DNA of 64,000 nt, from positions 32,001-96,000 of IMG/VR virus record IMGVR_UViG_3300035703_000020; one strand, given 5' to 3'. Under the pieces are notes generated by a model, which had not been told where the DNA came from, did no database searches, and saw only the letters and a program-made list of their open reading frames with translations. Below, one piece after another: positions 3,921-4,214 of this stretch (its first letter is position 1; each line of letters begins with the position of its first letter). The position numbers and the translations under genes were made by a program. This stretch comes from a virus.

Positions 3921-4180
3921 CGTCCGCTAAGACGTAAAACTGGCCGCCCGGTCAACACTTCGGGGCAGTGCCGAACACCTCCACTTACCGCGGCTTGGCA
4001 ATCTCACGAGAAAGCAGTGGGGCATCTCGATGAGGGCGCCAACTTGGGCTCACAACCACGCGGTACCACGGGGGTGAAACAGAATCGACTGGCTGGGCGA
4101 ATGTTTGCAGACGCGAACAACATCGTAGCTTTCGAGCGCGCGACCGTGGCCGCCTAGGCCCATCGCCCGTGACGATACCC
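3921..4180 (+). ncRNA. ssrA: circularly permuted (two-piece) tmRNA, tag ANNIVAFERATVAA*
   Basis: Acceptor 3' strand CACCTCCA (3976-3983) lies upstream of the 5' strand GGGGGTG (4070-4076), giving G3.U70; T arm TTCGG-GGCAGTG-CCGAA; GCCCGGTCA (3946-3954) pairs with TGGCTGGGC (4090-4098); tag ORF 4113-4157. Confidence 0.92.
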
Positions 4181-4214
4181 GGGAGAGTCTTCCATAGGCT
4201 CTCCCTTTCCTTTT
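4181..4214 (+). terminator. rho-independent terminator after the tmRNA
   Basis: GGGAGAGTCT-TCCAT-AGGCTCTCCC followed by TTTCCTTTT. Confidence 0.8.

Follow-up and report, generated by a model that had tools for sequence, protein, structure and literature searches.

How does a cyanophage come to carry a transfer-messenger RNA (tmRNA) gene whose tRNA-like domain resembles that of alphaproteobacteria and whose proteolysis tag resembles that of cyanobacteria, and is such a gene likely to work? This question is raised by a locus at positions 3920–4214, on the plus strand, of a 64,000-nucleotide stretch of viral DNA (positions 32,001 to 96,000 of the IMG/VR virus record IMGVR_UViG_3300035703_000020; the whole stretch is hereafter called the window). 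A first-pass annotation of this DNA had read the locus as a phage-encoded two-piece tmRNA, a chimera in which an alpha-like scaffold had been retuned to cyanobacterial proteolysis. Our analysis indicates that the cyanophage which carries the locus is a relative of Synechococcus phage S-CBWM1, and that the locus probably encodes a functional two-piece tmRNA (ssrA) from a compact family of tmRNAs that apparently lack pseudoknots. Judged from its sequence, this is a compact cyanophage tmRNA whose tRNA-like core is of alpha type; the view of an alpha scaffold fitted with a cyanobacterial tag is not upheld.

Organization of the Permuted Gene

The gene is circularly permuted, with the 3' half of the acceptor placed first, followed by an intervening segment and then by the acceptor 5' half together with the tag, the two halves being joined by the acceptor stem and helix P2. 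All features reported by the first-pass annotation were present where it had placed them, including the G3:U70 pair, a further 9-bp helix (P2, 9–10 bp) and a terminator. The acceptor piece (3920–3983), which forms the 3' half of the tRNA-like domain and was delimited by sequence, folds, family alignment and covariation, holds a 5' hairpin (3921–3934), then UAAAAC, and continues with the 3' strand of P2 (3945–3954), the junction ACAC (3955–3958), the T arm UUCGG-GGCAGUG-CCGAA with its 5-bp stem and 7-nt loop (3959–3975, seen in sequence and folds) and the acceptor 3' strand CACCUCC (3976–3982). The discriminator A3983 is followed by CUU, so that the CCA end is not encoded. The intervening segment of 86 nt (3984–4069) folds as a long hairpin stacking on the acceptor stem, and would presumably be removed during maturation. 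The start of the coding piece (4070–4099) supplies the acceptor 5' strand GGGGGUG (4070–4076), which completes a 7-bp acceptor stem with the G3:U70 pair, the D-loop analogue AAACAGAAUCGAC (4077–4089) and the 5' strand of P2 (4090–4099), complementary to 3945–3954. P2 was 10 bp long both in the cofold of the two pieces and in the minimum free energy (MFE) structure, and took up 9 consensus columns in the family alignment.

Downstream of P2, a short hairpin, UGUUUGC-AGAC-GCGAACA (4102–4119), is predicted in the place of the pseudoknot PK1, and its 3' strand covers the resume codon. The tag frame (4113–4157; GCG AAC AAC ... GCC GCC TAG) encodes ANNIVAFERATVAA and a stop codon. The 3' half of the tag is paired with the tail that follows the stop codon in a P5-like hairpin (4132–4175), which is supported by covariation and corresponds to consensus helices 5 and 6, in which 4 of the 14 pairs have changed on both sides; the stop codon lies at the end of the hairpin loop, with its last base, G4157, unpaired. 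Terminator analysis identified an intrinsic terminator (4181–4214), consisting of a 10-bp stem (4181–4205) followed by the U tract UUUCCUUUU, which is probably the 3' end of the coding piece. The acceptor stem, the T arm and P2 were recovered both in the cofold of the two pieces and in the fold of the whole precursor, the latter with a z of −2.7.

PK1 is absent: only 13 nt separate P2 from the resume codon, and the simple hairpin is predicted instead. No alternative long-range partner was supported by covariation, and no support for a pseudoknot was found. The 5' end is 43 nt from the resume codon in the window, as against 72 nt in the hosts and in S-CBWM1, and there is almost no 3' domain. 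Two further candidate helices were set aside. A long-range helix between 4095–4100 and 4162–4167 was dropped because the tail covaries with the tag (GCGA/UCGC, GUGG/CCAC, GCAA/UUGC and others) and not with the invariant GGGUU upstream, and pairing of UCGUC, at the start of the acceptor piece, with GACGA in the tail appears in the MFE structure of the window but is not conserved in most relatives.

A Family of Compact Cyanophage tmRNAs

A search of the whole records of five long relatives identified permuted tmRNA genes in three of them, all as unusually short as that of the window, and further copies were retrieved from IMG/VR and from JGI metagenomes by a pattern on the tag end and the tail. 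After the removal of duplicates, the compact family consists of 19 distinct members on viral and metagenome contigs, the window included. All members have 43–46 nt between the 5' end and the tag; a small hairpin whose 3' strand lies over the triplet before AAC AAC; a tag of the form ANNIV[ARST]FER[VA][AT]VAA; a P5 hairpin in which the tail CCCGUGACGA pairs with the 3' half of the tag and the stop codon lies at the loop; no encoded CCA; and a terminator shortly after the tail. Every one of these defining features is present in the window. The discriminator A was demanded by the parser, and for the relatives it is not independent evidence.

Covariation gives the secondary structure strong backing and was seen in every helix. 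In the family alignment (A2), 98.9% of the cells of a 37-pair consensus are paired, compared with 80.6% in shuffled alignments, and 21 of the 37 pairs are changed on both sides, a number that none of the 500 shuffles reached. When the partners were slid by one to three columns as a control, only 36–47% were paired. The G3:U70 pair is invariant in the family (19/19), and 35 of the 37 consensus pairs form in the window. The hairpin over the resume codon is likewise compensated among the members (UGGC/GCCA, UGAGA/UCUCA and GUUCGU/GCGAAC, with UGUUUGC/GCGAACA in the window), and the codons of the tag vary synonymously (AAC/AAT, UUC/UUU and GAG/GAA). The claim of a phage-encoded two-piece tmRNA was thus borne out by 18 homologues with compensatory changes, as well as by the fold z and the Rfam E-values given below.

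In six members (L255, L264, L266, L280, L283 and L307), the triplet before AAC AAC is CUC instead of GCN, and the hairpin partner compensates for the change. It may therefore be at the first AAC that translation resumes in the family, the leading alanine coming from the charged RNA.

The intervening segment varies in length from 4 to 117 nt in the family. The 86-nt segment of the window is closed by the stem UACCGCG/CGCGGUA, and it shares an invariant loop motif, GCAGUGGGGC, with the segments of L282 and L272; two inner stems covary among these three sequences. No Rfam family matched the segment, which may be more than a spacer. A complete tRNA gene lies within the intervening segment of L274 (1229–1302; Rfam tRNA, 65 bits) and at the same place in L320, so that tRNA processing alone would free both tmRNA ends in these two, and L268 carries a 106-nt tRNA-like insert there.

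An Alpha-Type Core in a Mosaic Gene

A normal T loop, UUCGAnU, is found in 17 of the 19 members, and in nearly all of these it is accompanied by GGAC ahead of the T arm and by a D-loop analogue that contains GG. The remaining two, the window and L281 (identical to L303), differ in three linked elements of the core. The T loop is GGCAGUG in the window and GGCAGAU in L281; the D-loop analogue is of the AGAxUCGA type in both, AAACAGAAUCGAC in the former and AUUUAGAUUCGAU in the latter; and the junction before the T arm is ACAC in both, as it is also in some alpha-type viral genes. The first-pass annotation had called this T loop alphaproteobacterial in type and unlike that of cyanobacteria, and the comparison agrees. 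The alpha consensus is GGCgGUA, while among the Cyanobiaceae, in which 104 of the 121 genomes searched yielded a two-piece tmRNA (270–326 bits with RF01851), all of the 31 genes examined have UUCGAUU and none shares the loop of the window, so that the sharing which the first-pass annotation had named as a refutation was not observed. The flanks of L281 match hli-bearing T4-like cyanomyoviruses, indicating that the GGCAG core is present in two unrelated cyanophage backgrounds.

In the set of distinct permuted tmRNAs that was assembled, a GGC or UGC T loop was accompanied by an xAGxxUCGA D-loop in 14 of 14 cases and UUC loops by a GG motif, a rule that the window obeys. This is what a tertiary contact with two alternative solutions would produce. 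The T loop GGCAGUG, the D-loop analogue AGAAUCGAC and the junction ACAC are best read as one co-adapted tertiary module of alpha type.

The window gene is a mosaic, in which an L282-like tag and tail are combined with a tRNA-like domain nearest to that of the other GGCAG member. L282 is a contig of a very close relative, with 88% identity to the window over 1.35 kb from the intervening segment onward; the intervening segment itself is L282-like too, and the tag and tail are 98% identical. The acceptor piece, on the other hand, is closest to that of L281 (71–76% identity versus 42–52% to L282), as are the P2 strand and spacer (64% versus 50%). Relative to L282, the T stem and P2 of the window have been swapped for different, fully complementary sequences, and such a compensated replacement looks like an exchange with a working homologue and not like decay. 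The same contrast of cores is seen on another background between L300 (canonical) and L281 (GGCAG). In a permuted gene, nothing but the intervening segment (of 5 nt in L281) stands between one half of the core and the other, so that a single short conversion tract could transfer the core as a whole. The core, seen here in two copies, may first have been acquired from an alpha-type gene or may be a product of convergence.

These results modify the earlier view of the gene as a chimera. At the level of modules the chimera stands, and it extends further than had been noted, since not only the T loop but also the D-loop analogue and the junction that precedes the T arm are alpha-like. As an alpha scaffold furnished with a cyanobacterial tag it does not stand, since the scaffold is that of the compact cyanophage family. 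The direction of change that had been proposed does not agree with the data, because the tag, the absence of an encoded CCA and P5 are common to all members, and only the core was switched, in a two-member sublineage. A wholesale alphaproteobacterial origin of the gene was also considered and dropped, as the alpha-like part is limited to core motifs of about 60 nt. The occurrence of the two core states on near-identical backgrounds (L282 versus the window and L300 versus L281) exposes the three-way covariation of T loop, D-loop and junction, and suggests that an alpha-type core can serve in cyanobacteria.

Detection by Standard Tools and Homology Searches

The first-pass annotation had warned that standard annotation could miss this gene, as indeed it does. 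In the window, ARAGORN called five tRNAs but no tmRNA, and a scan with Rfam at gathering thresholds likewise gave no tmRNA. At relaxed thresholds (E-values from a 1.3-kb search), the best Rfam match was alpha_tmRNA (RF01849) at 3957–4088, with 38 bits (cut-off 50) and an E-value of 4.7e-9, spanning only positions 90–166 of the 355 of the model. The score was 36.3 bits with tmRNA_permuted (RF04321; cut-off 47; E 2.2e-5) and 10 bits with cyano_tmRNA (RF01851; cut-off 70), and no Rfam tmRNA model gave the window a score that reached its gathering cut-off. The cut-off of RF04321 was reached by all ten relatives tested, which were nine compact members and S-CBWM1; L281 scored 48.9 bits, and the tested compact members with a UUC loop scored 48.6–57.5 bits.

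A 20-mer taken from the T arm of the window was not matched exactly anywhere in IMG/VR. The loose pattern CCTCCAC..GGGGGTGAAA returned 113 viral hits, mostly due to chance, from which a stem filter left 17 real permuted tmRNA genes, nearly all of alpha type with ANDN tags. With the pattern GACGTAAAACT..CACCTCCA, S-CBWM1 was the only real recovery, the other nine hits being chance. A match of the 5' 20-mer in Oculatella sp. LEGE 06141 was also taken as chance, with no T arm upstream and a genome that lacks a permuted tmRNA. When the window and L281 were compared with phage isolates by blastn, no tmRNA homologue emerged, and no matching tag was found in the supplements of the 2025 tmRNA database paper. 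Current pipelines thus overlook this copy, and GenBank leaves even easier cyanophage copies unannotated: in the T4-like cyanomyoviruses S-SSM7 (NC_015287, ~20967–21318) and S-CAM1 (NC_020837), either nothing or a hypothetical protein (SSSM7_025) is annotated at the tmRNA. It follows that the investment of phages in ribosome rescue is under-counted.

The Carrier Phage and the Surroundings of the Gene

The IMG/VR virus record that carries the gene is 149,878 bp long, has terminal repeats and a GC content of about 65%, and encodes portal, protease and major head proteins. The head protein is 64% identical to the capsid protein of S-CBWM1 and 39% identical to that of TIM5-like cyanophages; S-CBWM1, an Aokuangvirus with an estuarine Synechococcus host, is the closest isolated phage, and more than 250 IMG/VR contigs carry relatives of this head protein. 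The tmRNA-like gene is the only one in the whole record, where no second copy was found. An smpB gene had been reported missing from the window, and none was found anywhere in the 149.9-kb record either; the same was true of a gene for a CCA-adding enzyme. The possibility that the phage supplies its own SmpB or CCA-adding enzyme was consequently rejected.

A tRNA-Met (CAU) gene (3847–3919, plus strand; ARAGORN; Rfam tRNA, 47.8 bits) lies directly upstream of the acceptor piece. A tRNA adjoins the acceptor piece in relatives as well, and 3' processing of the tRNA-Met would define the 5' end of the acceptor piece. Further downstream of the tmRNA, both the window and S-CBWM1 have a tRNA-Thr(CGU). 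A close relative, L161, has no tmRNA at the syntenic place but an open reading frame (ORF) instead, and it retains the same terminator hairpin and downstream sequence (3830–3880 in L161; 4181–4225 in the window). The terminator therefore belongs to the phage backbone, and the tmRNA sits in a variable cargo slot.

Three other features of the region were recorded. One, at 3708–3767, is a tRNA-like RNA (Rfam tRNA, 40.3 bits) in which the acceptor, D and T arms are present and the anticodon arm is absent; L282 keeps this RNA, its acceptor and T stems having undergone compensatory changes, so that it is probably maintained and not a decayed tRNA gene. A match to the abiF RNA motif at 3543–3590 was below threshold (32.5 bits, cut-off 37), and a similar sequence is also found upstream of the tmRNA in the relatives L253 and L254. 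A few kilobases downstream of the tRNA/tmRNA cluster, at 8315–9403, an RNA ligase of the T4 RnlA type is encoded (PHROG 562, E 5e-42), suggesting phage-encoded tRNA repair.

Alternative Explanations

Several observations weigh against a functional tmRNA. To our knowledge, PK1 is almost universal in bacterial tmRNAs, and it is missing here, while the hairpin in its place sequesters the resume codon. The near-universal GGAC before the T arm has been replaced by ACAC, the last base of the T loop is G where alpha tmRNAs have A, and the gene eludes both ARAGORN and Rfam at their usual settings. The pattern used for retrieval fixed the tag end and the tail motif, and the conservation there is thus partly an artefact of the search. 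In addition, the close relatives L161, G271 and G273 are without any tmRNA, so that the gene is dispensable. A decaying, non-functional copy, in which the odd T loop, D-loop and junction are simply damage, could account for the low scores, the lost GGAC, the failure of the consensus pairs 4089–3955 and 4147–4161 to form and the loss of the gene from some relatives. Damage would not be expected, however, to leave nearly all of the consensus pairs intact, to replace the T stem and P2 of L282 with perfectly complementary sequences, or to spare a tag frame that still matches L282 so closely; nor does it readily explain why the same three-part change of the core is found in L281/L303, in the context of a different phage family, and why the window fits the T-loop/D-loop rule of working alpha-type genes. 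We therefore consider decay unlikely.

An RNA that acts as a decoy, binding host SmpB, alanyl-tRNA synthetase (AlaRS) or ribosomes and thereby blocking or diverting trans-translation, appears somewhat less likely still. There is a precedent in the phage tmRNA of DS6A that consists of the tRNA-like domain (TLD) only, and a similar molecule inhibits tmRNA, perhaps by titration of SmpB (PMC4131195). A tRNA-like core unlike that of the host and the lack of PK1 would both suit such a role, but a pure decoy needs neither a host-like tag frame with synonymous variation nor a P5 helix conserved around the stop codon in 19 members. It is very improbable that the locus is the remnant of an integration into the host tmRNA gene (an attP-type fragment) or a stretch of protein-coding sequence. 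Although tmRNA genes are described as common integration sites (PMC4383910), both halves of the gene are present, and the acceptor stem, the T arm and the D-loop differ from those of the host Cyanobiaceae gene. A minus-strand ORF of 78 codons (3985–4221) does overlap the gene, but substitutions follow RNA pairing and not codons, the intervening segment varies widely in length among homologues, and spurious ORFs are expected at 65% GC.

Proposed Mechanism and Implications

A functional two-piece tmRNA thus remains the explanation that we prefer, and from the sequence and from knowledge of other tmRNAs we infer the following course of events. The gene would be transcribed together with the tRNA cluster of the phage, transcription ending at the terminator (4181–4214). 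Host tRNA-processing enzymes would cut after the tRNA-Met (3919), after A3983 and before G4070, releasing the 86-nt intervening hairpin, and the host CCA-adding enzyme would extend A3983. The acceptor piece (~64 nt plus CCA) and the coding piece (~145 nt) would be held together by the 7-bp acceptor stem and the 9–10-bp P2. Charging by host AlaRS would rely on G3:U70 and A73, and the RNA would then enter stalled ribosomes together with SmpB of the host, which would be needed because the phage record has no smpB. Translation is predicted to resume at GCG 4113, or possibly at AAC 4116, adding (A)ANNIVAFERATVAA; this tag would mimic the host tag, which ends in VAA, and host proteases would remove the tagged product. 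The phage might gain by keeping ribosomes free while host mRNA and the supply of host tmRNA collapse. The permuted order of the gene places the core on one short stretch of DNA, which may make it exchangeable by recombination.

A broader view can be offered more tentatively, at a little under even confidence. According to this, S-CBWM1-like and T4-like cyanophages, which belong to unrelated families, share a natural two-piece tmRNA of about 210 nt that is apparently free of pseudoknots, whose modules (the tRNA-like core, the intervening segment and the tag cassette) are shuffled by recombination, and in one sublineage of which a complete alpha-type core (T loop, D-loop and junction) works in a cyanobacterial host. 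If this is true, natural tmRNAs can do without PK1 and the 3' domain, and either kind of tRNA-like core can replace the other in dealings with SmpB, AlaRS and the ribosome. The family, which keeps only the tRNA-like domain, P2, the small hairpin, the tag and P5, provides a natural test of the parts needed for ribosome rescue.

Comparison with Known Systems

Phage tmRNAs, and permuted or two-piece tmRNAs including those of cyanophages, are already known. The two-piece tmRNA of phage Melnitz has been described, 53 unique two-piece structures were reported among the tmRNAs of 402 phages, and S-CBWM1 is entered as ‘Permuted’ in Table S1 of the same work (PMC9004378). These published phage two-piece tmRNAs had not entered into the first-pass annotation, nor had the absence of PK1 or the conventional cyano-type permuted tmRNA of S-CBWM1. 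The latter gene (NC_048106, ~23.9–24.2 kb) is syntenic with that of the window and shares with it the acceptor stem GGGGGUG/CACCUCC-A-CUU without an encoded CCA, the acceptor-piece motif GACGUAAAACU and a tag of the ANxIVAF type, ANKIVAFHRQAVSCA as read by ARAGORN. It differs in having the T loop UUCGACU and a GG-type D-loop instead of the alpha-type core, a longer 5' region with room for PK1 and a cyano-type 3' domain; accordingly, it is found by ARAGORN and scores 123 bits with cyano_tmRNA, as against 10 bits for the window. The tmRNAs of S-SSM7 and S-CAM1 are also permuted and without an encoded CCA, and their tags, which are extended N-terminally in ARAGORN's reading, contain ANNIVAFSR. 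Unlike the window gene, they combine normal T loops with a cyano-like 3' domain and with more sequence ahead of the tag, and they are detectable by ARAGORN.

The genes of the Cyanobiaceae (Synechococcus, Prochlorococcus and Cyanobium) resemble that of the window in being permuted, in not encoding CCA and in having an ANNIV...VAA tag. The description of the window tag as cyanobacterial in type is upheld by the 31 Cyanobiaceae genes, which carry 16-residue tags of the ANNIVRFSRQ..VAA type (e.g., ANNIVRFSRQAAPVAA), and the first 14 nt of the window tag DNA are identical to the tag DNA of high-GC Cyanobiaceae. All 31 have the T arm AGCGG-UUCGAUU-CCGCU, the acceptor stem GGGGCUG/CAGCUCC and the D-loop CAAUGGUUUCGAC, in each of which the window differs; all 31 also have 72 nt before the resume codon, with a PK1-sized region that the window does not have, and the Cyanobiaceae genes have a long 3' domain. 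In contrast, the alpha two-piece tmRNAs (RF01849; SAR11 and marine-phage genes such as that of Melnitz) are close to the window in the core alone. Their consensus T loop, GGCRGUA, agrees with GGCAGUG at 6 of 7 positions; their D-loop analogue, AG(G/A)AUCGAC, is matched by AAACAGAAUCGAC; the acceptor stem GGGGGUG/CACCUCC is shared; and the 5' 20-mer of the window (4070–4089), which includes the D-loop analogue, recurs without a difference at the 5' end of a Pelagibacteraceae tmRNA that has the T loop GGCAGUA. The encoded CCA, the ANDN-type tag, the PK1 region and the GGCAACAGAA-type 3' domain of the alpha-type genes are all absent from the window. Like the window gene, the TLD-only RNA of mycobacteriophage DS6A (PMC4131195) is a phage-encoded and strongly reduced relative of tmRNA; it consists of hardly more than the tRNA-like domain and lacks a tag frame, whereas the window gene keeps a conserved tag frame.

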